Origin: Xylographa opegraphella
Lineage: Eukaryota
Reading direction: 5' to 3'
Assembly: GCA_022813865.1 (NCBI GenBank)
Contig: JALDZX010000019.1
Coordinates: 62,001-126,000 of the forward strand
Length of the DNA: 64,000 bases
The notes under the pieces were generated by a model. The model was not told the DNA's origin. It worked only from the letters and a program-made list of their open reading frames with translations, and searched no databases. The position numbers and the translations under genes were made by a program. Shown here in pieces: positions 2,168 through 62,321 of the stretch (position 1 is its first letter; every line of letters begins with the position of its first letter).

Positions 2168-3451
2168 ATGGATAGTACAGCGGATGCTCAAATCCCGCTT
2201 TGGCTTGACTGCGATCCAGGTACACTGGTGAAGACCGCCAGCACGCCCTACCTGGGCGGCACCTTCTCTAACACTCCTTCTAGGTCATGATGTACATCAA
2301 ACCCTCTCCACCACATGGTTTATAATTTGTTGACCTTTTCATAAGGACGCCTTCGCCATTCTCATTGTTGCTCATCACCCCAATCTCCACCCTCTCGGTA
2401 TCAGCACCGTTCACGGCAATGCGTCCTTAGACCATACCACGGCAAATGCAAGTCGCGTCTTGCAAGCTGTTGGCCGCGCAGATATCCCTGTGTATCCTGG
2501 GTCGGCAAAACCATTTTGCAGAGAAGCTGTCGCAGCGCCCAACATCCATGGTAAACTTTCTGCCCTTGCAATGTATACCAGCATAGTACTAAAACCCCAA
2601 TTTCAGGCGTCTCCGGCCTCGATGGTACCGATCTCCTTCCTGCGGCTTCCTCTCCTCCCATAATACATACGCCTTATCTGCTTGCCATGAGATCTGCCCT
2701 TCTCGCATATCCGTCCGGAGTTGCCCATCTCGTCGCCACCGGCGCCCTCACGAACGTCGCCCTCCTCTTCGCCTCCTTTCCGTCCCTTGTCACACACATC
2801 GCCTCGCTAAGCGTCATGGGCGGCGCCCTTGGAGGCGGCTTCACTGATGCTCCGCTCGGGCACCTTACTGGTGAAGGCGAACGCATCGGGAACGTCTCAC
2901 GATGGGCGGAGTTCAACATCTACTGTGATCCGGAGGCTGCAGCAGCTATATTTGGGAACAAAGAGCTAGCAGCGAAAACGACACTTATTCCGCTGGACTT
3001 GACGCACCAAGTGCTTGGGACCGCTGAGGTGCAGCGGACGCTCTTGTATGGGAATTCAGAAGAGGGCGAGGAGCCAACGACATTGAGAAAGATGTTACAC
3101 GATTTACTGATCTTTTTTGCCGGGACATACACGGAGGTTTTTGGCTTGGTGGAGGGGCCGCCGCTGCATGATCCAGTTGCAGTGGCGGTACTACTGGACA
3201 ATTTCGGGTTCGAGCAGTTGGGGTTTGATGATCGAGGAGGAGAGAGGTGGGAAGTCAATGTTGTGACTGATGGACAGCACAGCAAGGATGAGAGTTTGCG
3301 GGGCCAGTTGGGAAGGACCGTGGTGAGTCGAGTAGATGGGGAAGGGGTGAGGATACCGAGAGGACTGGACGTGAAAGCCTTTTGGCGCGTTTTTGAAGAG
3401 TGCGTCCAAAGGGCGGAAGAGCGCTTGAAATGGAAGCGGAGCTTGGAGTGA
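2168..3451 (+). CDS. URH1: Inosine/uridine-preferring nucleoside hydrolase (4 exons)
   Basis: The spliced N-terminus reads IPLWLDCDPGHDDAFAI (exons 2168-2219, 2284-2291, 2346-~2550, ~2608-3451). Other motifs: ISTVHGN, ATGALTNVA, MGG, AEFNIYCDPEAA, PLDLTH, PLHDPVAV. Confidence 0.92.
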
Positions 3452-18039: not shown

Positions 18040-18090
18040 CTGTCTGCTGACCCTGGCTGTCTGCTGACCCTGGTTGTCTGCTGACCCTGG
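18040..18090 (+). repeat. 3 x 17-nt tandem repeat (C/T)TGTCTGCTGACCCTGG within the NACHT P-loop codons
   Basis: Copies at 18040-18056, 18057-18073 and 18074-18090 (third copy starts with T). Confidence 0.95.
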
Positions 18091-19270
18091 CTGTGGAAAG
18101 TCGGTTCTAGCAAAATATCTGGTTAACAGAAGAGGGGAGGTCTTGACTGTGGACACCAAGGCACCGACCATGTGCTACTTTTTCTTCAAAGACGGAGACA
18201 TAAACCGAGTCGACGCAGCTAAGGCTCTATGTGCTTTCCTCCACCAGCTCATCATGCAGCAATCCGATCTCTATCAGTACGCTAAGAAAGACTTCGAAAA
18301 CAAGAGCGAGATATTCTTAACAGACTTTGATGCGTTGTGGAGCATATTTTTGAAAGCCACTGCGAATGCCTCCGGGAGGGAAATCATTTGTGTTCTTGAC
18401 GCACTCGACGAATGTAACGAATCTTCAAGGAAGATGCTAATTGCTAAGCTCGTCCAACTATATAGTATTGCCGATTCGATCGATAGCAGGAAGCCAGTCC
18501 TCAAATTCCTTGTGACCAGTCGTCCAGATTTCAATATCGTCCGTGACTTCAAATATTTGACAAGCACAATCACTGAAGTCAGGTTACGTGGTGAAAATGA
18601 GTCAGTGCATATCAGTCGCGAAATTGATCTTGTAATCGATTTCAAAGTAAAAGAACTTGGGTCGAAAATGGACTTGAGTGAATCACAGCAATCAAGCCTG
18701 CAAGAAGAACTTCTTAGTGTCCCCCACCGAACGTATCTCTGGTTGTACCTTACCTTTGATACCATCGAAAAGAAGCTGGAGCTTAGCAAAGACGAAATCG
18801 CAGTCATCGCAAAAACCATCCCTAAAAACGTCGACGAGGCCTACCCTACCATTCTGGACAGAAGTCCTGATAGAGATAGGGCCAGGAGGCTTCTTCATAT
18901 TGTTCTTGCTGCTACTAGGCCATTGACCTTGCAGGAGGCGAACGTCGCTATCGTTATGCGAGAAAGTCAAGAGTCCTATACGGATCTCGACCTTTGGCGA
19001 CCCGACATAGCCGAGGACAGAATCAAGAACATGTGTGGGCTTTTCTTAAGTGTGGTAGATTCAAAGGTTTACCTGATCCATCAAATGGCAAGGGAGTTTT
19101 TAGTTTGCGATGATCACGCTAGTTGCTCTCTTGTGGAACAAAATCTCTCTTCCACGCACTGGAAAATGTCGTTCCATCCTGAACGATCGAACTTGTCAAT
19201 GGCTAGGATATGCATACGGTATCTTCAACTCGAGGATTTTGAGAAGACAGAGTTGGCAATCTTTGAGGAA

Positions 19271-19450
19271 AAAAGCGAGGTGGCAGAAAGCGAGGTGTCA
19301 GAAAACGAGGTGTCAGAAAACGAGGTGTCAGAAAACGAGTTGTCAGAAAACGAGGTGTCAAAAAACGATGTGGTAACAATCAATGAAGAAGAAAACGAGG
19401 TTGAAGAAAGCGAGGTGGAAGAAAGCGAGATGTCAGAAGGAAAGGTAGAA
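19271..19450 (+). repeat. In-frame 15-nt coding repeat (GAAAACGAGGTGTCA; ENEVS) forming an acidic linker
   Basis: About 7 consecutive units at 19271-19375, plus degenerate units to ~19450. Confidence 0.9.
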
Positions 19451-20851
19451 GGAAAAGCGTTGGAAAAGATTCGTCAATATGAAAGGGATTACATTTTCTT
19501 GTCTTATGCAGCTCAATACTGGGCAGCACACTTCACTCAAGCCAACACTTTACCGGATTATGAGCTCATCAAAACGGTGGCAGACCGAGTTTGTAACACT
19601 TCTTCTCGATCCTTCCGCATCTGGTTCTATATGTATTCGTGGATAACGGGAAACTACAAGATAATATCGACTCTGCATGTGACAAATATACTTGTTGGAG
19701 CACTTTTTGGACACGTGGCGGTGGTTCAACTGCTTTTAAAACATAAAAACGTTCGAATCAATTCGAAGGACAATGATGGTTTAACGCCGTTATTGTATGC
19801 CGCAATTGAAGGGCACGAGGCTATAGTCGAATTACTGCTAAAACAAAAAAACGTTCAAGTCGATTCGAAAGATAATTTTGGCCAGACGCCGTTATTATAC
19901 GCAGCGAGGTCAGGCCATGAAACAGTGGTTGCATTGCTATTAAAACGAGCGAATGTAAAGGCCGACTCGAAAGACCACGACGGCCGTACACCGTTATCAT
20001 ACGCAGCGGAGTCTGGCCAAGTGGCAGTAATTGCATTGCTGTTAAAACGGGCGAATGTAAAGGCCGACTCGAAAGACCACGACGGCCGTACACCGTTATC
20101 ATATGCAGCAGGGTCAAGTCAAGTGGCAGTGGTTGCATTGCTGTTAAAACGGGCGGATGTAAAGGCCGACTCGAAAGACCACGACCGCCATACGCCTCTA
20201 TTTTACGCGAAAAAGAAGAAGGCGGTGGTCAAGCTGCTGGAAGAACACCTCGCCCAAAGCGAGCACTCTCACTCTATCGAGACATCAGAAGTGTTATAGG
20301 CGGGAGGAGACCTCATTTGGAGTACTTGTCTATTTCAACACACCCAGCGCCATGAAGCTTGCCGTGGTATTCTTTCTGTTCGATTGTCTGCCAGCTTCGC
20401 CATCAGTCTGTGATTCTCATCCGGTGGGCGAACGGTTGGAAGTGCTTTGTGCGTCGCGATACCCTCCTGAGGTATGGTTGTGTCATGTCGGAGTTGAAGT
20501 GCATCCGGGCGGTACGTATGAAGCAATGGCATCTGTGTTGATCGACGACGGGCAGTCTGCCGAGAGTCATGCTCTGGGTTGGACGTTGAGTGGGGCTTCA
20601 TCGGAGGAAGTGGAGCAGATGGATGGACCGCGCTTCTGAGTCGTGTTGGCAGATTCGTTGATGGTCGAGTGGAGAGTAATGATCGGGTCAGTCGACTCGA
20701 GTGCGGTGGTCGCGATGGTGTTGAGTGTTGTGCAGTGTCATCTCGAAGGGCGCGTTCACGAGTGGTCGAAGATGGGACAGGAGAAAAAGCTGCGAAAGAG
20801 AGAGAGTTGGATGAGACTGCAGTACAGAGATGATGGCAAGATGAAAATGGT

Positions 20852-33777: not shown

Positions 33778-35990
33778 TCAANCCCCCCCATCCCTCTCCC
33801 TAACCCACCGCACAACCCTCCCCCCCACATCGCCCACCAACCCCTCATAATGCACTTTGCCCGCGACAAACAAGCCACAATGCGCGCCCACCTCGTCCAC
33901 GCCGCGCATGAACACGCGCGGCCAGCACGCATCGCGCTCTTGGCCCTTGCCGCGCGGCGGCAGCATGCAGAATTTGCGGTCACGGGGCGGGGGCTGCTGC
34001 TGCTGCTGCTGTGGGAGGGCGGGTTGGGGAGGCCGCTCCTGCTCGTCCTCGTGCGCGTTATGCGTCTTCAGGCGAGCGGCGTCGTCTTTGCGCCGCTTCT
34101 TCTCGTCCGCTCGGGCAGCTTGCAGGGCAGCCTTGTCCCGCTTCGCGAGCAAGTGGCGCCGGGCGGCGATGGCGCGGTCGCGGTCGCGGACGGCGCGCTG
34201 GTGCGTCTTGACTAGGTGGGCGTGGGCGCGCTGGGCGAGCTTGAGGGTGTCTTTGGAGGGGTAGGGAGTTGGATCGAAATGGGAGGGAGGGGAGGGGACG
34301 GGGGGGAGGGGGGGGAGAGTTGGGGAGGAGGGGGAGGGGGGGGAAGAGGGTTCTGAGGGGGCGGGGAGGGCGGAGGTGGTTGATGGGGGAGGGGGGGGTT
34401 CGTGGGTGCTGTTGTTGTTGTCCTCGTCGTCGTCATCGTCGTGCGGTGGGGCTTCGTCGTCAGTGGTGGGGTCGGGGGCGAGGTGGGCCATGGAATGGGT
34501 TTGAAGAGCGTGCGGCTCTTCCTCCGCTGGATCTGCGTCCTCGTCTGCGTCTGCCTCGACGTGAGCGCCGGCGGGGTCCTCAATCGAGATGCGCGGGCTG
34601 CGCGAGGCGGAGCGCGTGCTGGCGTCGCTGGCGGCCGACAGGGTGGCTCGTTGGAGGCAGTCCTCCAGCCCGGCAGTCGTGCCGTCGAGTTGCTGCTGCT
34701 CCGGGTGCGCTTTCACCTTGGCGGTGGGAGACGCCGCTCTGCCCGTGCTGGCGGTGTAGTAGTTGACGAACCTGATCCTGCGGGGTGGCCGGTACTCCTG
34801 CATCGACTCCGGCCGGGATTCGTCGACATCCTCGAGGGCTCGCAGCCGCTCGTAGCGGGCCTTGAGGCCCCGGTAATCGGCAAGGGCGCCGCCGAATTCG
34901 AGATGGGAGGTCACGTAGGACTTGGTGGCTTTGGTCAGGCCGTCGGAGTGCTTCATGATGAAGTGCAGGGTGCTGTCCCAGCCCTTGCGGACGGGGAGGC
35001 GGACGTCGTTCGGGAAGGGAGGGTCGAAGTTGGGGTCGTTGATGGGTGTTGCTAGTGGGGATAGTGAGGATACGGGAGATCGTAAGCTTTCCGCGGTTTG
35101 GTCGGGAAAGTATCCCGAACTGGGGGAATCTTCCCTTCCTGGCGTCGGCAGTAGCCCGCTTCCGGCGAAGGTACCATTTGGAGTCGCGAGCTGCTGAGGC
35201 ATCGGCATCAAGGCAATGACTGCCTCGGTACCATCCACTGGCTTCAAGGTTGGAGAAGCTGGCTTAGCCTTGAATAGAGATCCGATGCCACTCACGATGA
35301 CGCCTGGGTGCATCCCCAGGAACGGGGTGTCAAAGTTGATGGTTCCTAGGATGCGGTGCCGGTATGTTCGGCGATCTGCAGCTGAATATGGGGCCAGCAA
35401 GGCCACCTCGGCGGACAGTATGCCTCCCATACTATGGCCAAGGAGGATGACATCCGTCTCAGGCGTCTCATTTGGATACAGCCTGCATGCTTGTTTCAGT
35501 ATGTTTCCTGGGAAGGAAACAATAGGTCTTACCAGTTGCTAAAATCATCCCGGGCGTAGTCAACCGCTTTCCTGGACTTATATCGCGGGTAGATTTTGGT
35601 ATGCACGGTATGCGTATCCGCCAGTCTCGTGGTGACGAGATTATGAATATGTGCAGGAAAAGACTGGAAGGAAGTTTCATTGCCTAGGAAGCCATGTATA
35701 AAGATGAGAAGTAGTGTTCGTCGACCAGCCCTTCCTTCGCCAGATGGGACTAAAGATTCAGTTGATCGCTGTCGTGGGTCTTGTCCAGACCATGAATGCG
35801 TCAACGGCTGTGATTTATATTCAGACGCCGTTCTTTCATAGGGAGGAGGGTCGGGCAGGACAGGCCTCAGCAAAGCTGATGCTGCTCTTGGAGGAAGAGG
35901 CGGGGGAACACCGTGCGGAGGGGCAATGGGTTGCTGCGTGCCGGGACGATATGTCGTACCCGTGAAGGATTGGTCTTTTTGGAAGCCCAT
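33778..35990 (-). CDS. DUF676-like alpha/beta-hydrolase (putative serine esterase/lipase) with a low-complexity C-terminus
   Basis: LLIFIHGFLGNETSF, nucleophile elbow ILLGHSMGGIL, FDTPFLGMHPG, RKFCMLP...VDEVGAHCGLF; one intron ~35485-35532. There is an N base at 33782 near the stop. Confidence 0.85.
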
Positions 35991-36339
35991 TCTATGCAGC
36001 TACGAGAGAGCGGCTGATAACTATGGAAAGACGAATGCCATCATGCCCTGGAAGTGCTGCTGCTGATCAGCACCGAATGATCGCGGGGCATGTATTGACG
36101 ATCTTTTGCTCCAAACGAGGTCGGGGTAGCTATTTTCGACGGCGAGACACCCTTGTCATGTACCTGATCTCTATTTATCTGGGTAGGTATGCTCCGTTGC
36201 TAGGGCTTGGTTTTGGGCGATGTTGCCTTGTGGTTCGAAGCCGGTATTGATTCACTGGCTTCTGCTTGGCAAGCCCCATTTCCACACTTTGGCCAGTACT
36301 CGGTTTCATAGTTGTCTTCGTTTCTGCCTGGAAAGTTGC

Positions 36340-41865: not shown

Positions 41866-44800
41866 ATGGACTCATATTCGCAGCCTCAGGATGACAGTTC
41901 ATTTGAAGTCCCACTGCTTACGAACCCACCTCCCCAAATCTTCGGCGCATATCCTCCAGCATCCCCATCTTCGATCCCATATAATTACTTCGGAGACGAT
42001 CAAGGTGATGGCGGGGAGGATAGCAACGATCCCAAGAGGAGGAGAATCGCAAGGGTACGAGAAGCACCCCTTGCGCGAAGAGAGACATCAAGACTGATCA
42101 GTATATACTAGGCATGCGACATGTGCCGGAAAAAGAAGATAAAATGCGACGGGAAGATGCCAGCGTGCTCGCATTGTATCAATTATAAGACGGAGTGTAT
42201 ATTCACCCAGGTGGAGAAGAAAAGAAATCCCCCGAAAGGGTGGGTCTGATCCAGCCATTGTGGATGCTTGAGGTAGAGATGCTGAAGCAGATAGCAGAGC
42301 CAAGTATATTGAAGGGCTAGAAAACCGCCTGGGACGTATGGAATCACTTCTGAAGCTATCCGGCTTACTCAATGAAGAAGACGGAGACAGAACAGATTTG
42401 GGAACCCTAGAGAAAAGGCTGGCTGATAAGACCCTCAACCAGAGCAATGGAGGTACACCTTCGAAGTCTCCAGCTGTCAACAACTCTACCCCTCAAGCAA
42501 GCGCATCATCAGACTCCCGGCATGAAACCCCGCAACGAGAGCGAAGAGCAAGTCCCAAGAGTACTGTGACCTCACCAGAGACCGGAAAGCGGAACGAAGA
42601 AGAAGTAGAGGCATTGTCAGACTTGATGTGTTCGTTGGTGACCAACAATCAGGGAGAAAGCCGGTATCTCGGTATGCCTGCACTGAAATATGCAGAAACC
42701 AATCCGCTCACTTGCTTAGGTTCATCCTCCGGTTTCTCTATTTTCTCGCCGAAGGGTATTCAATGGGTCAATGAGAAGACTGGGGACAACTCTTTCCAAG
42801 AAATGATATCCTCCGCTACGCATGATGATACTAAATGGGTTTACTGGAAGCCTGAATTGTTCAGTGATATATTTCAACGTCGTACATACATGCCTTTGCC
42901 GCCGTACAACGAGGCTTTATCATTACTGAAGGACTACTTTGAAAATTTCAACTGCATGTTTCCCTTGTTTCACGAACCAACGTTCATGCACCTTGTTCAA
43001 AGGCAATATTCTCGAAACCCATACGAAGGTTCTGGCTGGTGGGCCAGTCTCAACGTTGCTCTTGCGATTGCTCATAGATTACGGGTCATGAGCAACTTGG
43101 TGCCGCAGGAGGAGGACAATAAGGCTTCGGCATTTTTGAAGAATGCTCTCGGAGTATTGTCAGAATTGACTATGCGGAATACAGACTTACTCAGTGTCCA
43201 GGCCCTGCTTGGGATGGTGAGCTGAGCTTGAAGGATTTCATGGGCACGAGGACCTACTGACATAATTCTCCAGGCCCTTTTCCTAATGGGAACTCCTAAC
43301 CCACAGCCATCATTTTTCCTTGTGGCCGCGGCCGTACGTTTGGCACATGCAATTGGTCTTCATAAAAGAGGAACGGCATTCAATCTCAACCCGATCGAAG
43401 CTGAACAACGCAAGCGGGTCTTCTGGATTGCTTATTTACTAGACAAGGAGTACGTATATACTGCAGGGCTAAAGGAAATTGCTGATCATTGTAGCATCTG
43501 TCTTCGATCAGGCCGACCGCCTGCCCAAGATGATAACGACATGAATGTTGAGCTACCAAGCGAAGATCCGGGCGACAATATCGGTAACATTCCACTGGCT
43601 GATGGCAAAGGAAAAACAAACCTGTTCCGACTTATGTCGACATTTGCCGTCATTGAAAGCAAGGTTTACAACCAATTATACTCTACAAAGGCCTCGCAGC
43701 AATCGGATGGCGAACTCTTGAATACGATTGGGGAGCTTGATAAAGAGCTTGAGGAATGGAAAGATGCGATCCCGATAGATTTCAGACCTGAGCACGAGAT
43801 CAAGGCCTCACATACACCCTTAATTCTTCATGTTGTTGTCCTACATTTCGCATACTACAATTGTCTCACCACTATCCACCGAATGTCAGTCCATCACGGG
43901 TATTGGACTAGTCGTCTCTCCAACTATGCTATTCAGGGCCTCAACGCACGACCCTTGAACCCTCGAGTGTTCTCCTCGGCTGCGTTATGCGTCCAAGCCG
44001 CTCGGGCCTCTATACAGTTGGTAAGATATGTTCCGCAGGGTGATTTTGCCTGTGTCTGGTGAGTGTATGTTCTATAGAATGCTTTCATCTGCTAACTCTA
44101 CCAGGATGATCCTGTACTATCCTGTGTCGGCCTTGGTCACACTCTTCGCCAACATATTACAGAACCCACAGGACGCAAGAGTCCGGTCCGATATCCGCTT
44201 GATGAACCAGGTCGTCAACTTCCTCTCCGTCTTGAGCGTGGACGAGGAGACGCACAGCATCAAGCGTATGCTCAGCGTCTGTACCGAGTTTGAACGCATT
44301 GCGAAAATCGTCCTCGATAAAGCAGACAAAGAAGCCCATACGCGCCGCAAGCGCAAAAGCCCCAAAGATGCCGACGAGCAACCAACTCAACAGATACCCG
44401 AAAAGCGACCTATGCCACAATCCTCGGAAGCCCCTCCCATGACCTCGCCCACTTTCGCATTTAACTCTAACTTTAGCACCGATCTCCTCACCCAACCATT
44501 CCACCCCACTCCAAACGGCTACCCCTCGCCGAGCTCCACGGCGGACATGCCGATCGTCACGGATTTCATGCCCGGCCCAGGCGACTTCCCGAACATGATG
44601 ACCGATTTCTCGGACATGCAGCAATTCGGCAACCCGAACGTCGGATCACCACTGAACGTGGGCTCCTTCCAACAGCCCTTCGTGCCCCAAGACTTGTGGC
44701 AGATGCCTATGACCCTGGAGTGGGACTGGGCTGACCTTCAGGGCGGGAACAGTTACCCCGGTCTCGAAGGCGCAGGACACGGCCCGATGGGCTTTCCCAG

Positions 44801-44876
44801 CGGCCAGGGCCAGTCGCCGCTGATGAATGCCAACGACGGGATGGGGCAGAATAGCTCGCCGGCGCAGCCGCGATAA
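41866..44876 (+). CDS. Zn(II)2Cys6 transcription factor with Fungal_trans domain, multi-exon
   Basis: [64 protein letters not shown]...[15 protein letters not shown]. Confidence 0.93.
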
Positions 44877-46662: not shown

Positions 46663-49600
46663 TCAATCACCGCCAAAGACTAAAAGGCTTTGAACATTGA
46701 TTCTGCCAAACCCACGTTGGCGCAACACTTCTCGGCCACGATGAACCGGGAACTCGGCCACGACCATGATGCTGACATCCTCCGCGTCGATGCCAGCCTC
46801 ACCTAACAGCTTTAAGACCGCACAAAGCGTCTCGCCTGTAGAAAGCACATCGTCCACGACCACCACTGACGCGCCTATGGGCACTACATTTCGCTCCATC
46901 TCGACCCGCTTCTCTGTCGGATCATTGAATGCCAAAGACGAGATATACGACGCCGGTTTACTGAAAGAAACTGTGGGTGGGGGCAACTTGCCAGCTTCGC
47001 GAATCAGCACTAAGGGCACATCGACCCGCGAGGCCAACGCCGACGCATAGACAAAGCCGCCGACCTCGCAACACGCCACCGCATGGATTTTGGCCCAGTC
47101 ACCGGTGAAGTGCGTTTGGAGCAGGAGCGTGCACAGTGCCAGCCCACCCGGCTGCTGTGAGATGCCAAGCACGTGGCGGAACTCGATACCCAGGCGTGGG
47201 AAGTCGGGTATTCGATGCACCATATTGGCCAGTCGCTGCAGGTCCTCATGGAAAAGGGGAAGCAAGTTATTTTCGGCAAACCTTACTGCCGCCTCGTTTC
47301 CGGCCGTATCATTGTCGAAGATGAAACTGGGGTGGTAGTTCAAGGCCGTCAAATAGGACTCGTTAACATTTCTGTCCTCGTTGTCATCACTCTCACCGTC
47401 TTCGCCATTGCACGCCCGGCGGATCCGCCGCGTCTGCTCACTAGCTTGGACGTGAACTTCGAGTAGCCTGCTGTCTGGCACCAAATGCGAGAAGGCTGCG
47501 ACCGGTGCCTCGTCTCTCATCCCAGTGATCATCAACACGTCCACATCTGCGGCACCGTATACCACGTTCAGGAAATGCTCCTCTGGCAGTCGAGGTCGTT
47601 GGCGAACCTGTCCCTGGAAAAATGCCGTCAGCGCTGGGCGGTGTTGCTCCTTGTAGGCACGGTCCCGAAGCAGGCGACTCAAGTCAGCACCAGTAGCCGC
47701 AGCGTAATCCCGCTTGGTCGCATCGCTTATGCTGACTACACGCGCCGTGAGGCTTTTGTGGGCGTATTCGGTAAACACAGAGACCCAGACGTCGGCGCAA
47801 TAGTCCTTGCCGGCGCAGCTTTCGCCCGTGACGAGAATGATAAGCTTTGGATCCATCGGCTTTTGCGGGAGCGGGCAGGCGTAAGCTAGCACATCATGCG
47901 GGTCCATGCTGCGTTTGAGACGGGCCAGGCGCGGCCGGTTCGGTCCGAAAGCCTTGGTCGCTAGCGCAGCGTCTCTAGGGTCCGGCCCGAGGTCGGCGCC
48001 GTATACTCCGCTACTCAAGGACAACAAGTTCTCGGCGACATTGTACACCCACCGCACGGTAGAGCGTGCGACTTCTGTGCCATCTTGATCGCGGGGCCAG
48101 ACACCGGTTATCACGCAGGCAAAGTCCCAGTCTCGACAGCCAAAAGCGGTTGCATCGGCCGCAATTTTGCCAACCGCTCCGCCCCCTTGCAGCAGATGGA
48201 GGTAGCAGAGTGGTGAGGGACGAGTCTCAACGGCCATTATCAAACGGTCAGCGACATTCGCTTCTCCGATGCGTTTTAAAAACAAGCATCGCTTGAATGA
48301 AGAGGTCTTGCCGCCGCTGTGCCCGCCGTGCATTCCGGACACGTACATTTCGGTTTTGAACAATCCGACACCGTCCACGGCCTCGGGATTTTCTTTCAGT
48401 TCCGAAAATGCACCTATGTGCGTGGGTGTTGCACAGGTGAACCCAGTCGTGGAGGCCTCGATCATGGTTACGCCGAGATGTAGCTGCCCATTGTCCCAAA
48501 ACAGATATGCGTCTGCAGAACAGTTTGGGGCCAGCTTCTTGGCGACGAGTTTATCAAACTCGCTGAGCCTTAGTCGCGCCTCGAAGCTGCCATTCAGCGG
48601 GACAACGCAGTTTCTGGTTAAGTATGTCGGAGCCGAGTAAGACTTGAAAGTTACGCTGACCACGATTCCAAAGTTGGTCCCGGCGCCTTTCATCGCCCAC
48701 AACAGATCCGATTCGTTTTCTGGGCGAATGGCATCAGCAGGCTGGTATTGATTTGGCACATAACCGATGCAGAGAACCTGGCTAGAGTCGACGCTGACCA
48801 CGACAGCACCGACAATGGCGTCACATGCGAGTCCGTGTAACCTTGCCAAGTGTCCAATACCGCCTTGTAGACACAGTCCCACACCTACGCTTGGGCGAGC
48901 TCCTAAGGGTACTGTCAGGCCCGCCGCCATGGTTTGCCGGACAATATCGCCTATCTTGCAGCCGGCCCCGGCCACGACCAAAGAACAAGAATCGATACCA
49001 AAATCTCCTCCATACTCCCCTGCTGTTATAATGTGAACCTGGTCAAAGGCGCCCATGTCGACCGAGACCACGTTGGGCCAGAGAGAGTGACCACTATGAC
49101 TCCCCCCGATGACGGTCAGGTTAACCTTATGCCTCAGAGCCCATCGAACGCACTGCTGGACGTGTCGAATCTCTGTCGGCCTCATAATAGAGGCGGGGTT
49201 GTGAAAGCGAGCCTCCCGGTTCTTAATCGTCTTATCCCCCTTCACCAATGGCACCTGCGCCGTCAGCTCCGGTAACGTGGTGGCATGTTGGGTAAAGGCC
49301 GCCATGATGTTAGGCGAGCTGAACAAAAGATGGTCTGGATGGGCTTCCTCGCGATGGCCCAAGGCTCGGCATTCTTTACGCCAATTGACGCGCATAGCCT
49401 CGTCTTCGTCCACATTCTGCATGATAAACCCAGCCACGAAGGGAGCAAAACAGTCCAGTACTTCATCGTCATTCGCCACGCGAACGACTCCGGTAGGGAA
49501 AGAAGCCGTTCGATGGCACACCAAGCCGTCGAGGTGCAGAGCCCCATCACGATGGAAAACCGCCACGATCCCACCTTCAACAAGCATTTCCAAGGCCCGT

Positions 49601-50184
49601 TCGATAAACTTGCGCTTGGGCTTCATGCCGTACATGCTGTCGCAGAATAAGATGACATCGTATTTTTCGTCCTTATCGCGCGTACCGGTGTTGGTGCCGC
49701 CCCCTACTCTATCCTGCAAAACGAACGGGATCCGATGGATATTGGGCAAGTTCTCCAGACAGGGCAGCGGGGACTCCGTTTCCGAGGTAGAGCATAGCCA
49801 TTCTGCCAAACTTGCAGCAAACAAGCCGTTAGGTTCGAAAGCAGTGAATCTCCTGACCTTTCGTCTCAGATGGTGAGGAAGATACCCAAAGACGCTCTTC
49901 GGGCCCGGGCCGATTTCCAGCACGGAGATATGGTGACGCGCTTCGAAGAGAGGGGCCAGCAGCTGAGATAGTTGTGGTATGATAAAGTCTTCGTACGTCA
50001 TCCATCCTAGGTCCCGTATCACGATATCGAAGCCCGCTCTGTACTGTTTCGCGGACAAAGCTTGCGTTGGGGAGGACGCCATTCCCTTGGCTTTCTCCCT
50101 AAGCGCCTGCTTCAGGGACTCAAGCGTGGCCATTTCCGGTTTGGGCATGAATGCACCCGTCTCTCGCACTCGTGATAACAACAA
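46663..50184 (-). CDS. Intronless multi-enzyme fusion: class I SAM-methyltransferase-like + FAD-binding PCMH/BBE oxidase + animal-type phosphomevalonate kinase-like + adenine phosphoribosyltransferase
   Basis: Methyltransferase: ISVLEIGPG / FTAFEPN / YDVILFCDSMY. FAD oxidase: VIGGSHSGH, GLCLQGGIGHLARLHGLACD, LLWAMKGAGTNFGIV, RLARLKRSMDP. Kinase: LVTGESCAGKDY...ISDATKRDYA...RLLRDRAYKEQHR. APRT: IPDFPRLGIEFRHV...LIREAGKLP...VVVDDVLSTGETL. The real ATG is probably 50148 or 50133. Confidence 0.88.
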   Translation of the reverse strand: MLLSRVRETGAFMPKPEMATLESLKQALREKAKGMASSPTQALSAKQYRAGFDIVIRDLGWMTYEDFIIPQLSQLLAPLFEARHHISVLEIGPGPKSVFGYLPHHLRRKVRRFTAFEPNGLFAASLAEWLCSTSETESPLPCLENLPNIHRIPFVLQDRVGGGTNTGTRDKDEKYDVILFCDSMYGMKPKRKFIERALEMLVEGGIVAVFHRDGALHLDGLVCHRTASFPTGVVRVANDDEVLDCFAPFVAGFIMQNVDEDEAMRVNWRKECRALGHREEAHPDHLLFSSPNIMAAFTQHATTLPELTAQVPLVKGDKTIKNREARFHNPASIMRPTEIRHVQQCVRWALRHKVNLTVIGGSHSGHSLWPNVVSVDMGAFDQVHIITAGEYGGDFGIDSCSLVVAGAGCKIGDIVRQTMAAGLTVPLGARPSVGVGLCLQGGIGHLARLHGLACDAIVGAVVVSVDSSQVLCIGYVPNQYQPADAIRPENESDLLWAMKGAGTNFGIVVSVTFKSYSAPTYLTRNCVVPLNGSFEARLRLSEFDKLVAKKLAPNCSADAYLFWDNGQLHLGVTMIEASTTGFTCATPTHIGAFSELKENPEAVDGVGLFKTEMYVSGMHGGHSGGKTSSFKRCLFLKRIGEANVADRLIMAVETRPSPLCYLHLLQGGGAVGKIAADATAFGCRDWDFACVITGVWPRDQDGTEVARSTVRWVYNVAENLLSLSSGVYGADLGPDPRDAALATKAFGPNRPRLARLKRSMDPHDVLAYACPLPQKPMDPKLIILVTGESCAGKDYCADVWVSVFTEYAHKSLTARVVSISDATKRDYAAATGADLSRLLRDRAYKEQHRPALTAFFQGQVRQRPRLPEEHFLNVVYGAADVDVLMITGMRDEAPVAAFSHLVPDSRLLEVHVQASEQTRRIRRACNGEDGESDDNEDRNVNESYLTALNYHPSFIFDNDTAGNEAAVRFAENNLLPLFHEDLQRLANMVHRIPDFPRLGIEFRHVLGISQQPGGLALCTLLLQTHFTGDWAKIHAVACCEVGGFVYASALASRVDVPLVLIREAGKLPPPTVSFSKPASYISSLAFNDPTEKRVEMERNVVPIGASVVVVDDVLSTGETLCAVLKLLGEAGIDAEDVSIMVVAEFPVHRGREVLRQRGFGRINVQSLLVFGGD

Positions 50185-51083: not shown

Positions 51084-53022
51084 TTACCAACTATAGCTCT
51101 CCTCCACGAAATCGATATTCGCCACGCCCTGCCTCTTCCGCACCGCCATGCGCACATCGTCCGCCAGCGCACCCGTCCCACACACGCTCACGCCCATGGC
51201 CCCCACCTGGGCCTCGCACTCCAAGCCGACGAGGGTGTCGATGTTCGGTCTCCCGGGGAACATCTGCACCGTGGCGCTGGGGGAGTGGATCTCCTTGGTG
51301 GCGCGGGGCCGCGTGACGAAGAGCTGGACGCGCAACACGTCGCGCCGCTTGTCGAGCGCGAGAATGGCCGTCATCCACGGCCGGATCCACTCGAGGTGCT
51401 CGGGCGACTGGATGATCCACACGAGCATGATGCGGCGGGTGGCGACGGTGCCGTTGGCGAAGCCGGCGACCAGGTCGCGGACGTAGCCAACTTGGTGCGT
51501 GATGCCGACGCCGCCGGCGAAGATGAGGACGGAGCCGTACGAGCGGAGGGAGTGCAGTCCGCCGTAGGGACCTTCGACCATCGCCGTCATGGTGAGACGA
51601 CCTCGCGCCTTCTCGGCCTTCTTGTACAGCGCATTGGTGAAGCCGTCGCGACGGCGGATGACGGCCGAAATGGTGGTTTGCTGCAGGGCAAGGATGTCTT
51701 GGCGATTCCTGGCGAGGCCTTTTTCGGAGTCGAGACACTCTTCCGTGGCGGACCAGGCGACGGAGAAGGGGTGAGATGTCCATAGCCCGATGGATGGGAG
51801 GGTCAGGAACATGTACTGGCCCGGTTGATAATCCCATGGGCGGGCCATCTTGATGGTAACGCGGATGGCGTCACCAGCGAGAGGCTCTATGGTGGCGACG
51901 GTGCCGCCGCGGCCGGCGTTACGGTAAATCATGAGCGCTAGGCGGATAGCCCGCTAAAGAAATGTGAGTTTCTCCCCACAACGGACGAAAGGGATGCTGT
52001 GAGAACTTACCTCGATGGCCCATGAAGTAATCGCAATTTGTACGTAGATCAGTTGTTGCAAGCCATCGAGATGGATGTAGAGGGCAGCGAAGACGAGTAT
52101 GACGACCAGGATATGCATATGCAAGAAGGTCTCATAGAAGGCGTGGCGCAATATGGCCGACGAGTGGAGGATGATGAACACAAAGCCCACCGTGCCCTGA
52201 GAATCAATCAGTGCTCTGCCTTGACGGCATGCATGAAGCTGCAGACTTACAATGAAACCGGAGATAATCAACTTGCTGGAGTGCAACTCCGCTTGAATGC
52301 CATTCCATCCCGCTACATGATTTTAGCTCGGTTCAACGCTCGGTTTGGCAACCGCACCCGTACTAACCTAGTTTGACTGCTTTGACGGTAAAGGAAATCG
52401 TATGAACGATTGCTTCGATCACAATAATTCTTCCGAACCACCGGTGCACCAGGTTAAAGGTATCGAACGAGATCTTGAGCCCCTGGATTAGAGGATTGTT
52501 CCGACCACCCATAATGACCAGAGGGATCAGGTTCACGACAGCCAGCGTACCGGCACGATTTCGAAGGTGGTCCAGCATGTTCGGAGATCCTGCTTGGGAC
52601 CACTCGATTCCTGTGGCGCACAGAGCGACGTTCATGCCGATGACCAGGGTCAGGAAGATTGTCTGGAATCTCGTGGGAAGAACGCCGATGCCCCATCTGC
52701 CCAGCAGCTGCAGCTCTTGCATATGTCGAGACCTGAAGAGCGGTGCGTAGAGGAGATGCTTCTTCACTCTGCCGAACCAGATATTTGGCATCCTGAAGTA
52801 CATCTGGGTGTCATTGTTCAGGCATGTCAGTCTCCGGATGTAACGAGCGGCACTCGAGATCAACCGGTAAATGGAAAAGAGCCCAGTCAAGCTTGCCAGG
52901 CTAATAAGAACGTAAGTCGCGAATAGAATGTTATCCACGCTGGAGGTGGAAACGGGAGTGCTCGCACTGCCACTGGCAGATGAGGTGCCCGTGGACATCG
53001 GAGTGCTTGTCGGTGTTGACAT
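51084..53022 (-). CDS. Ferric/cupric reductase (FRE family, NAD(P)H/FAD-dependent transmembrane), multi-exon
   Basis: RNRAGTLAVVN...GRNNPLI...FNLVHRWFGR...AIVH; RHAFYETFLHMH; PGQYMFL...SHPFS; VEGPYG; FAGGVGIT; VSVCG...ADDVR...FVEESYSW. Confidence 0.92.
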
Positions 53023-54929
53023 TATTGCGTGTGCCAAGTCGCCGATATCAAGTGCGAGAAGTTGAAGCCAGGATTCCGATCCGGGTTATCGGAGCGCCAG
53101 AGACGGACACGATATCGAACAGATTTGCTCAAGACAGCAGAGCGGCTGATAGTGTCAAAGATTTCGTGTTGAGCTGGCAACAGAGGATTGTATAGTTGGA
53201 CAAGATCAAAGTCCACCCAAAAAACCACACGAAGATCCAGTAAGAAGAGATCGTGTTGGAATGTGAAGAGATAGTGGTGTCGACCTGCGAGAGTTGATTT
53301 ATAGAATCGAATGAAAAGACAGCCGCGTGTCACACACTGATCAAAGTGAGCACCCGAGGTTGGAAGAGACTGTGGCTGTGAGTAACAGATAACGAGCGCG
53401 GTCCTCGAGATTCATGCAGCGCTGGACGGGCAGCTCATCCATGTGCGTGTGTCTGGACAGTGGAAACAAACAATGATTCCAGTTCCCACACCGGTGAGTT
53501 GATGGTCCAGGGCGATCAACGTGAGCGAGCACGGAAGCAAACACAATGGGTGCTGTCGCGAATCCGACCAGGGATTGACGGCAGGAGTGTCCAAGTCGCA
53601 GGGGCCCAGAACCACACACTGCAGAGGAGGCGACAGATGCGGCAACTGCCTAGAGAGCGGGAGGCAAAAGCTGTACGAGCCAGAGCAGAAAGGAAGGTCA
53701 GTGTTTTCGACTGATAGAGCGAGTACACACGAGAAGGGTTGCACCGTGGGCCAGCACCAGGGGGTGGTGTGGTGGTGAAGAAGAATTGAGGAATTAGATG
53801 CGAGAAAGGAGTCTTCTAGCGCACTCGTCATCCCGGCGCTACCAGGGGGGTCCCTTAAACACGTTTGAGATTTCGGCGGGCGCGCCCCCCCGGAAGATGA
53901 CGCGCAGCCAATGAGCACGGGGGGGCAATCTTCAGTCAAAGTGCCCCTAGAACTAACTAAACTCTTCATCTTTCCGCAGCCCGTAATTAAACGGTAAGGG
54001 GGGTCCCGCCCCCATGTCTCTCTTGACACCCGATCATGACTCCTTTTATCCCTATCCCACTCACTTCCTCGCGAAACCCTCATCGCCCACACCGTGACAC
54101 TCCGTACCTGGCCGTTTGACAATCCCGCAGTCAGCAGCGGCTCACCGAACCTTCTTCTCGGGGGCAGCAGCACCCCTCCATCTGCAACCTCGTCCTCCGT
54201 CCCGAACGAGTCCATCCAGCGCAATCCTGCAGATCTGCATCCTCCGAGCCCCCCGCAACTTAAATCATAAACTTTATTTCCAATGGCTTTCACGAGCGCC
54301 TGATATGCTATCAATGGGAAGGAAATGTCACCGTCCTCCACTGCAGACGATAGTCCAGTCATCCCCGACCAAGCCACCGTACCCAATCCCCATAAACCAG
54401 GCCCCTCCCACCGTCGTGTTGCACACCCGCGTCTGCACCCCGTCGTGCGCCCGTCCTTCCCCAACACCTCCTGCCCGTTACAGACTCGACCGTCGTGCTG
54501 CACATTTGCTGATGCACCTTCCACCCACCATGCCGGCCCCTCCCCTTCCCAACCAGCACCTGTCCAACCCACAGCCCGACCCACTGAAAGTTGTGATATC
54601 ATGCCCTTGGACCGTCACATTCGACATCTTTGTTGCAGCCCCAACGGGACTGTCAAGTAGGTGATCTACTCCACTAGGGATCGGGCCGCATATCTACCGC
54701 CCACGGCCCGACCATCTCCCAGCCAATCAGCGGACCGGACGTCACATGCCATAGGCGCAGATCGCATCACCCGCGCCCCGTTGCAACGACAACGACTGCT
54801 GCTGTGGAATCCAATGCTCACCAAAACCCACAACACCCTCATCTGCTCTCCTCTCCGCTTTCCTGGTGGGGGGGGGGGGCGCACATGCACGTCAAACAAC
54901 CCCACCCCCACGCACCTCCCATGGCCATG

Positions 54930-58381: not shown

Positions 58382-61025
58382 TCAATAATATTCCTTCCTT
58401 CCGCCAATTCCCCCACGTCGAGTGTAGTTCAACTTTGCCGGCCTCCCACCGCCTCTGCTCGTTCTTTGCGCATTACTGGCCTGCTGCCTTTGGAGGATTT
58501 CGTCAACATTGCTAATCGCTTGAGGCGCTAATTCAGATGCGCCTACTGGCCTTTCGACCCTTGCTTGCAGCATTTCCTCTTCGAAATTGTTATCGTCCGT
58601 TGTGACATCCGCATCTGTCATCTCATCGCTTTCTTCTACTACGGCGAAGCTTTCATCACGACTTGAATCTGGTGAAGAGGCTGGTCGGGTTTCTGTTGGT
58701 GAAAATGTGGCCCCCCGTGACAGCCGGTAGCGGTCAGACGGGATGGCTTCCCGGCCGTCAATGGCTTCAAGGGCTTTTGACGCCTGTCGGAAGTATTGCA
58801 CCGTTTCCTGCTGGCGTTTCTTCTCATCTAGATTAGTGGGCGCGCCTTTAGGGTTATAGCAATAGTATGCGGTAAGTTTCTTATAGCCACGGGTGGCGGA
58901 CCGGAAATTATGGGATGAGGGAGAACCTTCGAGAAAGACCACATTCTGGTCAGAGGATTCCCGACGTTGATCGGTCGCTGCTAGTGCCTCGTTTCGATGA
59001 TTGCTCAAATCCGGTGGTGTGGAAGGACACCCGACATTGGGCTTTGGGGTATGCTCACTGGGTGTATCCTCAGGGACTATGTTCATTCCGCGATCCTTAG
59101 CTGCAAGTAGCCTTGCCACCCAACCATCGATACCAGCAAGCGCTGCAGCAGGGTCTTCCATATTCATTATAAGATATCCTTGAATCTCGGCGGGAGTGAA
59201 CCTGTTCTCCGGTACCCTGCTACCAAATTTTCGAGCCATCTCTCGAAGTTTCTCAAGCTCAATGTTGGTCATCGATGAACCGTCTGGTACGGCCGGTTCT
59301 CCCTGGAGTTGAGACTTCAGTGGTACGGCTGAAACGCCTAATGTAGGCTCTGGTGCGCTTGTTGTAGGCTCTCGTTTTTCAATGAAGATGGCGAGCCAGC
59401 AGAACAAAACTATTACGACTGCCGTGTATATGCCGACCCCAAGTAATAACTTTGATATAACAATTTCGATGTTGCAGAGATAATGGGTCACAGACACTGC
59501 CCAAGTAGGGGGAATTATCCAAACCATTAGGAATATCCACCAAGAGAAGATCGTCAAGCTTCTGATTAGTTTCGTGAATCTAGATTGGTTCTTTGAGTTC
59601 GATTCCGTGCTAGTGTATGAGAGTGCCGAATCATGAGCATCCCTCGTATACATGCGTATGAAGATGTGCTCCGCAACCCTCTGGGATACAGGGCCGAAAA
59701 AAATTTGCATATCGATTCGGCCAGGTCGAATCAGAGCTTCATCGAGAGCCTCTGGGTCATTTGAAGTCATTATCAAGACTCGTCCTTCTTGCGATGTAGC
59801 ACCATCAATGGCATTCAGAAGCCCTGACAGAGTGATTGAGTTTTTGGCTTTCGAGGGTTTGCCTTTGGTCTTCGGCACGTTATCCTGTCCTCTTTCCCGC
59901 CGAATGTTCTCGCGTTTGATTCCTGCTGAATCAATATCTTCAAGCAGGACTATACATTTTCGTGGAAGCGTCTCAAATGTGTCCGCTAAAGCAGCATCCC
60001 CTCTGGGGAATGCGGCAAGATTGATGATATAAAGATCGAGGTGGAAATGCCCTGCGAGCGTCACGCTCATCGAAGTCTTACCGGTGCCTGCATGTCATTA
60101 GCTACAATCAAATTTAGTCGTCTTGCCAGAACATACCTGGAGGACCGTGAAACAGGTATCCGCGGCGGTGGGGAATGCCACGCGTCGCGTAGAACCGAAA
60201 GCTGGCCGGATGAAGATATCTTTGAATATCTTGTACGAGCTGCTCTTTGGTCTTGAGGTCAAGATCAATGGTTCTCAGAGGCCTGGTTGGTCTGCGGACG
60301 GCTCTGAAGGTTTCTATATTCTCTGAAAATTTATAAAAGGTCGTATTGGTTTTCGCATTACTGACTGCTGCCTTGCTACATTCATCGATGAAGGTTTTAA
60401 GGAAGTCTGGAGAAAAGCCGATAGTTGTCAAAACAATCCCTGCAGCCTGAGGTCTACCGCCTTCAGGTGCCTGCCCATATTGTGGTATACTAAGCGGTAC
60501 CATTTGGCGTATACTGTAAATCACCCGCCATCCTCGCCTGAACCAAAGATACTTCTGAGTCGCTGGCTCATAGTAGACAGTTGCGTCTGCTTTAAAGAGC
60601 GATTAAAGTTAGCGAAGACTGTCGACTAGAGTGATCCTTAATGTATCCGAATGGTGAGGGATTGCAAGAAAATAAAGAATATGCCAAAAAGGTAAGTACG
60701 TACAGGCGTGGGGAGGGGGGAATCCTCTTTTTTCGATCTTTGAAGCATTCAAACTGACTGCTCCCAATCCTTTTTTGCTGATGACATTCACAGTCAACCA
60801 ATCTATTACATCTCCACAAAGTGGATCGGTCGCAAGTATCGAAATTGAAACCAGAAAAAAGCTAGCAAATCCACGAATCAGATGCTCCCATATATAGCCA
60901 ATGACATTGAAACCCGCGAGGCTGTATATCACCGGAAGTATGCCTGAGGCTCCGGGAACGTAGCTCTCGACGATACTACTGATATCGCGTGGAAACTTGG
61001 TCCCAGATGTTCTTGTGGAATTCAT
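58382..61025 (-). CDS. BCS1-like AAA+ ATPase, multi-exon, with C-terminal extension
   Basis: BCS1_N-like region (YYEPATQKYLWFRRGW), RPTRPLRTI, FYATRGIPHRRGYLFHGPP|GTGKTS (Walker A split by an intron), CIVLLEDID, ITLSGLLNAIDG...EGRVLIMTSN, ALIRPGRID, FTPAEIQGYL. Confidence 0.9.
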
Positions 61026-62321
61026 CGCGGTCTGTCGTAATGATGCTATCCACGCTGAATTAATCCGCAACTAGAAAACACAAGTATGCGATGACCAGGG
61101 ACGTGGAGCTCAACCACTTTTCACCCATTGCGGTACGCTTCCCATTTCCGAAAACAGTCTCCTTACGCACCAGTGGGCGCGAAAAGAACGTTTGAATAAA
61201 AGCAAACAAAGGCTATCTTTGGTATTCAAGCCAATAGCAGGAGAACGTAATAAGGACTTTCGATCTTGGAAACGGTCGAGCAAGTCTTTGTCAAATTGCA
61301 AAGCCATGACAGCGCATCGCACTTCGAGCACGTTGGTAGAGGAAGTAATTTGCCAGACCATGAAGAGCCACAGAATCACACCTGAGAATTCTACTGAGCT
61401 TATGGTCCAACATGACTACTACATGTTGATGTGGTACCGAAAGTGAAGACTGCATGTGCAAGGGCCGTTTCCATGTACTAATGAAAAATGCGCCTTCGGA
61501 CCCTCGACCGCTCACCGGAGGTCTTAATGGAAAAGCTAAAGTAGGTCCATCGCAAATGAGGATCGATCGCTTGTTGACCACACGACGAACGAACTCAGAA
61601 AGGAATAGGTACCTTAACGTATTGTTTACTGTAAGTCGTTGCTCCGTAAACTATGGTAACGAGTATGAAGGGCATAAAGTAAGGCAAGGAAGGTATCTTA
61701 CCTCAGACATAACGTGAACGGACTAGCCTTACGGCGGTTAGATTATCCTAGCGTGACAGGGCTGTGAAACGCACAGGAGACTTCAGCCTGAGGGTTTATC
61801 AGCTGGAACACCCTGAATTAGGTACCTACCATAGTACCGTACTATGTACCTAATTACTCAACCAATTCTGCCTGTATACGGAGGACTCAACTAATCAAAC
61901 CCCACTGGAATCCAGTTTTGCTCGCAAGATATCGTATTTTAGCGTACGGCCCAGACGTTTGGCGTTATGGGCAGCTAAACATTAACGGAGTTTGATAGAC
62001 GAGCTGAGTAGAACGCCGCAATGATTTGCTTCCACCAGCCGAAACCTGGAGCGGAACGTAAATGTCGCTATCGTCCTGAGCTTATTCCGTTCCTCGCAGT
62101 CTGAGAAGTAAGTTGACACGATTTTTGCGCTTTTACTCACGGTGTGGCTCCTAAAAAGAGATGATTATTTAAGCGGACCGTGATTTATGCTTTATCCGAT
62201 TGGCATGAGCATATTGAGACATGCCATTGAGGCCTGGTAGTTTCTAAATATCGAGCATGATCTAGTTGGAATATCGTGGTGGTTTCCAATTGCGAAGTCC
62301 AGCGTCAATACAAAGATCTCC

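Follow-up and report, generated by a model that had tools for sequence, protein, structure and literature searches.

A conserved four-domain fungal enzyme with a candidate role in pterin tailoring

The 64,000-nucleotide stretch of Xylographa opegraphella DNA analysed here (the window; assembly GCA_022813865.1, contig JALDZX010000019.1, positions 62,001 to 126,000) carries on its minus strand one long intronless gene, whose product joins a predicted methyltransferase, a flavoprotein oxidase, a P-loop kinase and a phosphoribosyltransferase (PRTase) in a single polypeptide, referred to below as the four-enzyme protein. We propose, with about even confidence, that it is a cytosolic enzyme acting downstream of GTP cyclohydrolase I (GCH I) and tailoring an intermediate of the 6-hydroxymethyl-7,8-dihydropterin type; its action probably lies downstream of dihydroneopterin aldolase (FolB) as well. 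In folate biochemistry, GCH I followed by FolB leads to 6-hydroxymethyl-7,8-dihydropterin. Because relatives of the four-enzyme protein are associated with these two entry enzymes in three separate ways, a pterin, not a purine, is judged from sequence and gene arrangement to be the most likely substrate class. The domain families themselves are known; what appears undescribed in the literature searched is their combination, how widely it is distributed and its connection with the enzymes of pterin entry. The link to GCH I and FolB makes an unexplained fusion a testable hypothesis.

Of the 22 diatom-clade proteins retrieved with the Odontella sequence P0273, 12 carry a fused N-terminal GCH I domain (PF01227, E about 1e-60). 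Those with a named source include Odontella transcripts and a Thalassiosira gene model, and another fused model bears the prefix CCRYP; the motifs CEHH and HxCMxMRG are kept in all 13 complete fused GCH I domains (13/13). A further relative, P0270 (a cluster of three members), is fused to FolB (PF02152; 41.7 bits against a cut-off of 31.8). In fungi, five loci offered 3 kb or more of upstream sequence for a comparison of neighbourhoods, namely the window and loci L001, L002, L003 and L004, and a GCH I gene adjoins the four-enzyme gene in two of the five. At L002 the two genes share a strand, GCH I being 2.7 kb upstream and a DDE transposase fragment standing between them; at L004 they are transcribed divergently, about 460 bp apart. 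In addition, GCH I and the four-enzyme gene are joined in a Rutstroemia gene model (P0096); this join may be an annotation artefact, yet it places the two genes side by side.

The open reading frame (ORF) encodes 1161 residues from its first ATG, and the stop-free frame around it, whose 1178 codons between stops are exceeded by no other frame of the window, reaches 50199. Since homologues begin at query residue 6, which is the second methionine (MATL..., nt 50133), a product of 1156 residues is likelier, on sequence comparison, than one of 1161. The initial annotation had placed the upper end of the gene at 50184, a position inside the 5' stop-free leader with no start codon. Its description of one intronless ORF with four domains in the order given below is confirmed by the ORF, the Pfam matches and the structural models, and every motif it named was found in its place, with FEPN, RLARLKRSMDP and PDFPRLGIEF read in the translation. 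The features of the gene are as follows.

46663..50148, minus strand: whole ORF, 1161 residues plus stop codon, intronless; probable true start 50133, giving 1156 residues
49279..50082, minus strand: domain 1 (residues 23-290), predicted class I S-adenosylmethionine (SAM)-dependent methyltransferase, histamine-N-methyltransferase-like
49903-49920, minus strand: LEIGPG, SAM motif of domain 1
47869..49236, minus strand: domain 2 (residues 305-760), predicted BBE-like, VAO-fold flavoprotein oxidase
49093-49107, minus strand: GGSHS, flavoprotein motif of domain 2
47410..47847, minus strand: domain 3 (residues 768-913), P-loop kinase of the animal phosphomevalonate kinase (PMK) fold family
47803-47826, minus strand: GESCAGKD, P-loop of domain 3
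47344..47409, minus strand: acidic linker between kinase and PRTase (residues 914-935), predicted local distance difference test (pLDDT) below 50
46678..47247, minus strand: domain 4 (residues 968-1157), type I PRTase derived from adenine phosphoribosyltransferase (APRT)
46828-46866, minus strand: phosphoribosyl pyrophosphate (PRPP) loop of domain 4, VVVVDDVLSTGET

The AlphaFold2 model of the whole protein has a mean pLDDT of 82.1 and a predicted TM-score (pTM) of 0.66, with floppy segments at residues 148-159, 979-989, the acidic linker 914-935 and the PRTase loop 1069-1076. Pfam matches to the window protein are listed in order of score.

Residues 773-890: P-mevalo_kinase (PF04275), E 3.7e-22, 78.8 bits against a cut-off of 33.8
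Residues 998-1131: Pribosyltran, E 1.4e-17, 63.9 bits against a cut-off of 26.3
Residues 318-455: FAD_binding_4, E 6.1e-13, 49.1 bits against a cut-off of 26.4
Residues 58-196: Methyltransf_23, 21.7 bits, under the cut-off of 27
Residues 731-755: BBE, 14.6 bits, under the cut-off of 20.6

The last two families rise above their cut-offs in relatives aligned on the same columns, with Methyltransf_23 at 36.8, 34.3 and 32.2 bits in P0164, P0220 and P0195 and BBE at 25.3 and 21.1 bits in P0233 and P0192.

The fusion is no assembly chimera, because more than 100 full-length proteins of 1110-1180 residues come from independent assemblies and diatom transcriptome ORFs show the same domain order. The initial annotation had allowed both for a chimera and for homologues occurring only as separate genes; neither is the case, full-length homologues being abundant. 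When 5.8 billion proteins were searched, nearly all of the 120 matches listed had 1110-1180 residues and 74-81% identity and covered 96-100% of the query. The close homologues named among them belong to Lecanoromycetes, Leotiomycetes, Dothideomycetes, Sordariomycetes and Geoglossomycetes, and a second search (120 matches listed) adds Aspergillus, Penicillium, Trichoderma, Orbilia, Gaeumannomyces and Cytospora; the core orthologue is present in Aspergillus section Flavi (A. parasiticus, A. novoparasiticus, A. sergii). A profile-free scan for distant relatives over 1.84 billion representative proteins extends the full-length family down to 26-40% identity, including the chytrid Blyttiomyces helicus, the streptophyte alga Mesostigma viride and the diatom Odontella aurita. 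Pattern scans with the family alignment and with P0270, over 185,579 bacterial and archaeal species each represented by one genome, returned no relative, and within the limits of such scans the family looks eukaryotic. A metagenome scan gave 79 loci, of which six are true relatives; the remaining 73, ordinary short APRT genes caught by the PRPP-loop pattern, were set aside.

Mean identities to 33 close homologues are nearly equal across domains 1 to 4 (77.2, 78.0, 77.6 and 80.1%), which indicates that all four domains are under equal constraint as far as sequence can tell; the corresponding values for 17 distant homologues are 21.6, 35.0, 27.3 and 32.4%. In an alignment of 59 sequences the invariant columns include G82 and E105 in domain 1, H351 in domain 2, G775, G780, K781, D782, S808, K812 and R837 in domain 3, and D1099, D1100, G1105 and T1107 in domain 4. 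The core catalytic motifs are thus unchanged out to the chytrid, the streptophyte alga and the diatoms, and the degenerate catalytic residues that the initial annotation had considered do not occur at these core positions. With 74-81% identity between lichen-forming fungi and Leotiomycetes, Dothideomycetes or Sordariomycetes, the protein is among the more conserved uncharacterised enzymes of Pezizomycotina. In some species the four-domain gene is present twice, once in a slow-evolving core type and once as a divergent copy about 46% identical to the core, for example in Penicillium malachiteum and P. herquei (P0127, P0327, P0328, P0143) and in Aspergillus chevalieri (P0337, P0343). P0127 of P. 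malachiteum is such a divergent second copy (46% identity), and the divergent copies might serve another, lineage-specific product.

Databases name members of the family after single domains, for example 'phosphoribosyl transferase domain protein' or 'FAD-binding PCMH-type'. The labels 'adenine phosphoribosyltransferase', 'phosphomevalonate kinase' and 'CAZyme family AA7' are probably wrong as functional statements; the last comes from one source and is annotation only. Full-text literature searches returned no study of the four-domain protein or of its fusion, and the passages of PMC2705460 that came up are unrelated to it. The initial remark that such proteins have domain-derived names and no characterised function is therefore borne out by both the database labels and the literature search.

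Domain 1 is predicted, chiefly from its modelled structure, to be a class I SAM-dependent methyltransferase. It carries the glycine-rich LEIGPG and the acidic FEPN, and its G82 (SAM motif I) and E105 (the acidic residue after strand 2) are among the invariant positions. Folded alone with AlphaFold2, it reaches a pLDDT of 88.7 and a pTM of 0.87. Alignment of this model with VIA-align gave histamine N-methyltransferase (1jqd_A) as the best match (Z 16.6, root-mean-square deviation 4.0, 243 of 295 residues aligned), the next match having a Z of 14.8; all top structural matches are class I methyltransferases (Z 12.6-16.6). Foldseek agrees on histamine N-methyltransferase (TM 0.57-0.60), and a sequence search of the PDB with domain 1 found nothing significant (best E 0.24). 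At residue 170 (nt 49639-49641), the near-invariant histidine of the family motif LFCHSxYG is an aspartate in the window protein (LFCDSMYG).

Domain 2 is, on the models, a complete BBE-like two-domain flavoprotein of the VAO/PCMH fold. Foldseek with the whole model places EncM as the best match (TMt 0.78-0.80 over about 500 columns); its list is filled by BBE-like chains and is thus informative for domain 2 and silent on the kinase and PRTase. The C-terminal half of the domain also matches the BBE-like fold. By sequence, the best solved relative is 6-hydroxy-D-nicotine oxidase (2bvf, 61.2 bits), and the invariant His351 (codon 49096-49098) aligns with His72 of that enzyme, which we take to be the flavinylated residue. 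Arg418 occupies the position of the cysteine in the GTCPGVG motif of the chito-/xylo-oligosaccharide oxidases 6y0r and 5k8e. Since H351 is kept and R418 stands in place of the second-link cysteine, the flavin adenine dinucleotide (FAD) is probably bound through a single histidine link. The VAO/BBE flavoprotein with a covalent-FAD histidine that the initial annotation had described is borne out by FAD_binding_4, by the Foldseek match to EncM and by the alignment of H351.

Domain 3 matches the PMK structures 7xnd and 3ch4 by sequence and keeps the S..K..YA and YKE..R motifs. Its P-loop, GESCAGKD, aligns to GKRKSGKD of these two enzymes and has lost three basic residues, and the animal-type PMK model TIGR01223 gives 24.7 bits against a cut-off of 188.15. 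By these sequence scores the domain belongs to PF04275 yet is no equivalog of animal PMK. The invariant K812 and R837 are the equivalents of PMK Lys48 and Arg73, which in the human enzyme presumably bind the acceptor phosphate, the lost basic P-loop residues presumably helping to bind ATP. Because the acceptor-phosphate residues are kept and the basic P-loop residues are lost, we infer a kinase still acting on a phosphomonoester, and one other than mevalonate 5-phosphate.

Domain 4 finds its best PDB sequence matches among APRTs, including the human enzyme (E about 1e-17), and keeps the PRPP loop VVVVDDVLSTGET, the GKLPPPT strand and the PDFP..G..FR motif. At the position of Arg67 of human APRT it has G1030, a glycine also present in the family consensus CEAGGF, and at Glu104-Tyr105 it has A1073-F1074; in the human enzyme these are, we assume, the residues that act on adenine. 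All four NCBIfam APRT models score below their cut-offs (90.4 against 125, 82 against 185.85, 76.9 against 170 and 67.5 against 243). The domain is probably a PRPP-using transferase with a predicted acceptor other than adenine. Of the two transferase-level assignments made initially, the PMK-like kinase holds for the fold family (PF04275, 78.8 bits) and fails for PMK identity, given the TIGR01223 score and the altered P-loop; the APRT domain likewise stands as a type I PRTase fold with a PRPP loop, and falls as an APRT, its adenine-site residues being replaced and its scores lying under the cut-offs.

How the four activities might combine on a pterin is our proposal as to substrate, order of steps and product. 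The histamine-N-methyltransferase-like domain would methylate a ring nitrogen; this is proposed because histamine N-methyltransferase, a ring-nitrogen methyltransferase, is the closest structural relative of domain 1. The 6-hydroxy-D-nicotine-oxidase-like domain would then oxidise the adjacent C-N bond with O2, and hydration followed by a second oxidation could give a 7-oxo ring of the isoxanthopterin type. Oxidation at C-N is proposed because domain 2 is closest by sequence to 6-hydroxy-D-nicotine oxidase and has the single histidine linkage in common with it; that enzyme, as we understand it, oxidises a C-N bond beside an N-methyl group. The APRT-derived domain would move 5-phosphoribose from PRPP with inversion, yielding a beta-riboside 5'-phosphate. 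The PMK-fold kinase would phosphorylate a phosphomonoester of a substrate or product, and we assign it no place in the sequence.

One known compound fits methylation, oxidation and ribosylation together. Asperopterin A of Aspergillus oryzae, which we take to be the beta-D-ribofuranoside of 6-hydroxymethyl-8-methyl-isoxanthopterin, is the only one we can name, and we put it forward as a hypothesis for the type of product. Section Flavi, to which the three Aspergillus carriers of the core orthologue given above belong, is also the home of A. oryzae. Passages of PMC6208954 and PMC6080641 describe asperopterins A and B as blue-fluorescent compounds with a pteridine ring, the term 'isoxanthopterin glycoside' appearing in reference titles, and report them only from A. 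oryzae; the same passages mention no biosynthetic genes for them.

A stronger version of the proposal, which we offer tentatively and consider doubtful, is that an unrecognised pterin pathway, nearly all of it in one polypeptide, is common to filamentous ascomycetes, chytrids, diatoms and a streptophyte alga, with a ribosylated, methylated 7-oxopterin as its product. If true, the pathway would combine the entry enzymes (GCH I and/or FolB) with N-methyltransferase, flavin amine oxidase, phosphate kinase and PRPP-dependent ribosyltransferase activities, would end in an asperopterin-type glycoside or a pterin nucleotide, and would include the first type I PRTase with a pterin acceptor. On this version, conservation close to that of a housekeeping enzyme suggests that the product serves the cell generally, for instance as a chromophore or cofactor. 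Pterin tailoring as such, if confirmed, would supply either the genes for asperopterin, a 50-year-old orphan metabolite, or a new pterin derivative common to fungi and diatoms.

Several points weigh against pterin tailoring of this kind. No GCH I gene was found in the 64-kb window, within 10 kb upstream in L001 or in the upstream sequence of L003, and PF01227 occurs in only one of the 120 closest listed homologues and in none of the 120 of the second list. The fungal link consists of two loci and one model that may be mis-joined, all of them perhaps from a single lineage, and a neighbouring GCH I could be the ordinary folate gene. As to chemistry, the asperopterin scheme has no use for the kinase, and for a type I PRTase O-ribosylation would be an unusual reaction. 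For the structure of asperopterin A, the published passages confirm only a 'pteridin ring system' and an 'isoxanthopterin glycoside'. Identities of 77-80% between fungal classes are seen more typically in core enzymes than in pigment pathways, and the literature searched holds no experiment of any kind on the four-enzyme protein.

The main rival to pterin tailoring by all four domains treats half of the protein as a GTP-supply module, in which the APRT-like domain would convert guanine or a similar purine base into the nucleoside monophosphate by salvage and the kinase would make the diphosphate, feeding GCH I; only the methyltransferase and the oxidase would then act on a pterin, and the product would be unribosylated. 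Domain 4 is clearly APRT-derived, PMK has a nucleoside-monophosphate-kinase fold, and the kinase acquires a role that the asperopterin scheme denies it. Look-alikes of residues 766-1161 in the ESM Atlas, adenylate kinase-PRTase and uridine kinase-UPRTase pairs, point the same way with scores of 0.77-0.85, although all ESM Atlas scores for this segment are 0.87 or lower and serve as leads only. We nevertheless hold this reading to be unlikely: throughout the family, the residues with which APRT handles the base and pyrophosphate have been exchanged, all cells already salvage guanine and possess guanylate kinase, and a long-lasting fusion of a supply module to tailoring enzymes would go unexplained. 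Less probable still is a genuine PMK tied to isoprenoid or prenylated-metabolite chemistry, which we rate lowest among the readings weighed here. P-mevalo_kinase scores well above its cut-off and the equivalents of Lys48 and Arg73 are conserved, but the P-loop is without the three basic PMK residues (GESCAGKD against GKRKSGKD), TIGR01223 falls far short (24.7 bits against a cut-off of 188), fungi use Erg8 for the PMK step, and no isoprenoid genes lie nearby among the 30 large window frames scanned.

The purine idea of the initial annotation, that the fusion serves to make, activate, salvage or detoxify a modified or prenylated, cytokinin-like adenine, found no support and is in our view improbable. 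Adenine phosphoribosyltransferases are indeed the best matches of domain 4 in the PDB and NCBIfam, and its PDFP..G..FR motif is APRT-like; however, every APRT equivalog score is far under its cut-off, Arg67 has become Gly and Glu104-Tyr105 has become Ala-Phe, and the flavoprotein is of BBE type, with no cytokinin-dehydrogenase or cytokinin-binding family among its Pfam matches at E up to 0.1. IPT/LOG, prenyltransferases and terpene synthases had been named as telling neighbours, and none gave a family match among the 30 large window frames scanned; nor did IPT/LOG or prenyltransferases in the scanned frames of L001, L002 and L004. The recurrent partners are GCH I and FolB instead. A 7-deazapurine-type nucleoside pathway, with GCH I starting preQ0-type synthesis and the APRT-like enzyme phosphoribosylating a deazapurine base, would accommodate the GCH I link, and GCH I with an APRT homologue is reportedly a signature of the bacterial toyocamycin and tubercidin clusters. 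It is more improbable again, since the second fused partner, FolB, is an enzyme of the aldolase branch, the scanned ORFs of the fused proteins and flanks matched no further family of pterin or deazapurine pathways, and the bacterial and archaeal genome scans found no prokaryotic relative.

The genomic surroundings of the four-enzyme gene vary between loci, and no biosynthetic cluster was seen among the 30 large frames scanned in the window. There the gene is flanked by a ferric reductase gene on the minus strand and a Zn2Cys6 transcription factor gene on the plus strand; the former is not beside the relatives in L001, L002 or L004. Neighbours other than GCH I differ among these loci, with P450 fragments and an ORF with a fungal rhodopsin domain at L001, the DDE transposase fragment at L002, and NACHT and eEF1A-like genes at L004. 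Other features of the window are as follows.

42272-44876, plus strand: Zn2Cys6 transcription factor
51084-53085, minus strand: ferric-reductase/NOX-type gene (Ferric_reduct, FAD_binding_8, NAD_binding_6), on the same strand as the four-enzyme gene and about 0.9 kb upstream
2555-3451, plus strand: inosine-uridine-preferring nucleoside hydrolase (PF01156, E 3.6e-47), 43 kb from the fusion gene, no link seen
17064-20299, plus strand: NLR-type gene encoding a NACHT_N / NPHP3_N NTPase with ankyrin repeats, its frames probably separated by introns; a similar NACHT_N/NPHP3_N gene lies at 3-2053 in locus L004
24217-28030, minus strand: Clustered-mitochondria (CLU / eIF3 p135) gene with TPR repeats, in two frames
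34001-36000: GC-richest stretch of the window (GC 0.614, with strong GC skew of +0.24), overlapping a 586-codon frame (33778-35538, minus strand) with a weak PGAP1-like match
58382-61070, minus strand: BCS1-like AAA ATPase gene (BCS1_N, AAA, AAA_lid_BCS1), in three frames

Compared with known systems, each domain resembles an enzyme from which it also departs. Human histamine N-methyltransferase (1jqd) has, like domain 1, a class I SAM fold with an extra beta-sheet substrate domain, whereas it is only 12-14% identical and is not fused to three further enzymes. The two-domain VAO/PCMH fold of domain 2 is common to 6-hydroxy-D-nicotine oxidase and BBE-like oxidases such as EncM and the chito-/xylo-oligosaccharide oxidases; 6-hydroxy-D-nicotine oxidase also has a single histidine linkage and no cysteine at the second linkage site, although it is about 20% identical, and domain 2 is taken to be cytosolic and is internal to a 1161-residue protein. 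Animal-type PMK (3ch4, 7xnd) and domain 3 belong to one fold family and have the GxxxxGKD P-loop as well as S..K..YA and YKE..R in common, but PMK keeps the basic P-loop residues that domain 3, far under the TIGR01223 cut-off, has lost. Human APRT (1ore/4x45/6fd4) and domain 4 both have a type I PRTase fold with PRPP loop and GKLPPPT strand, and both contain PDFP..G..FR; the human enzyme has Arg67 and Glu104-Tyr105 where domain 4 has Gly and Ala-Phe with all equivalog scores under cut-off. The fungal FolB-HPPK-DHPS protein FOL1 offers a precedent for a multi-domain fungal enzyme that takes the product of GCH I through 6-hydroxymethyl-dihydropterin, with domains wholly unlike those of the four-enzyme protein, in which Pfam matched neither HPPK nor DHPS. 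Asperopterin A, on the structure given above, combines a GTP-derived 6-hydroxymethylpterin with an N-methyl group, a 7-oxo function and a beta-ribofuranosyl residue, and each of these would match one domain or one fused partner of the protein described here.

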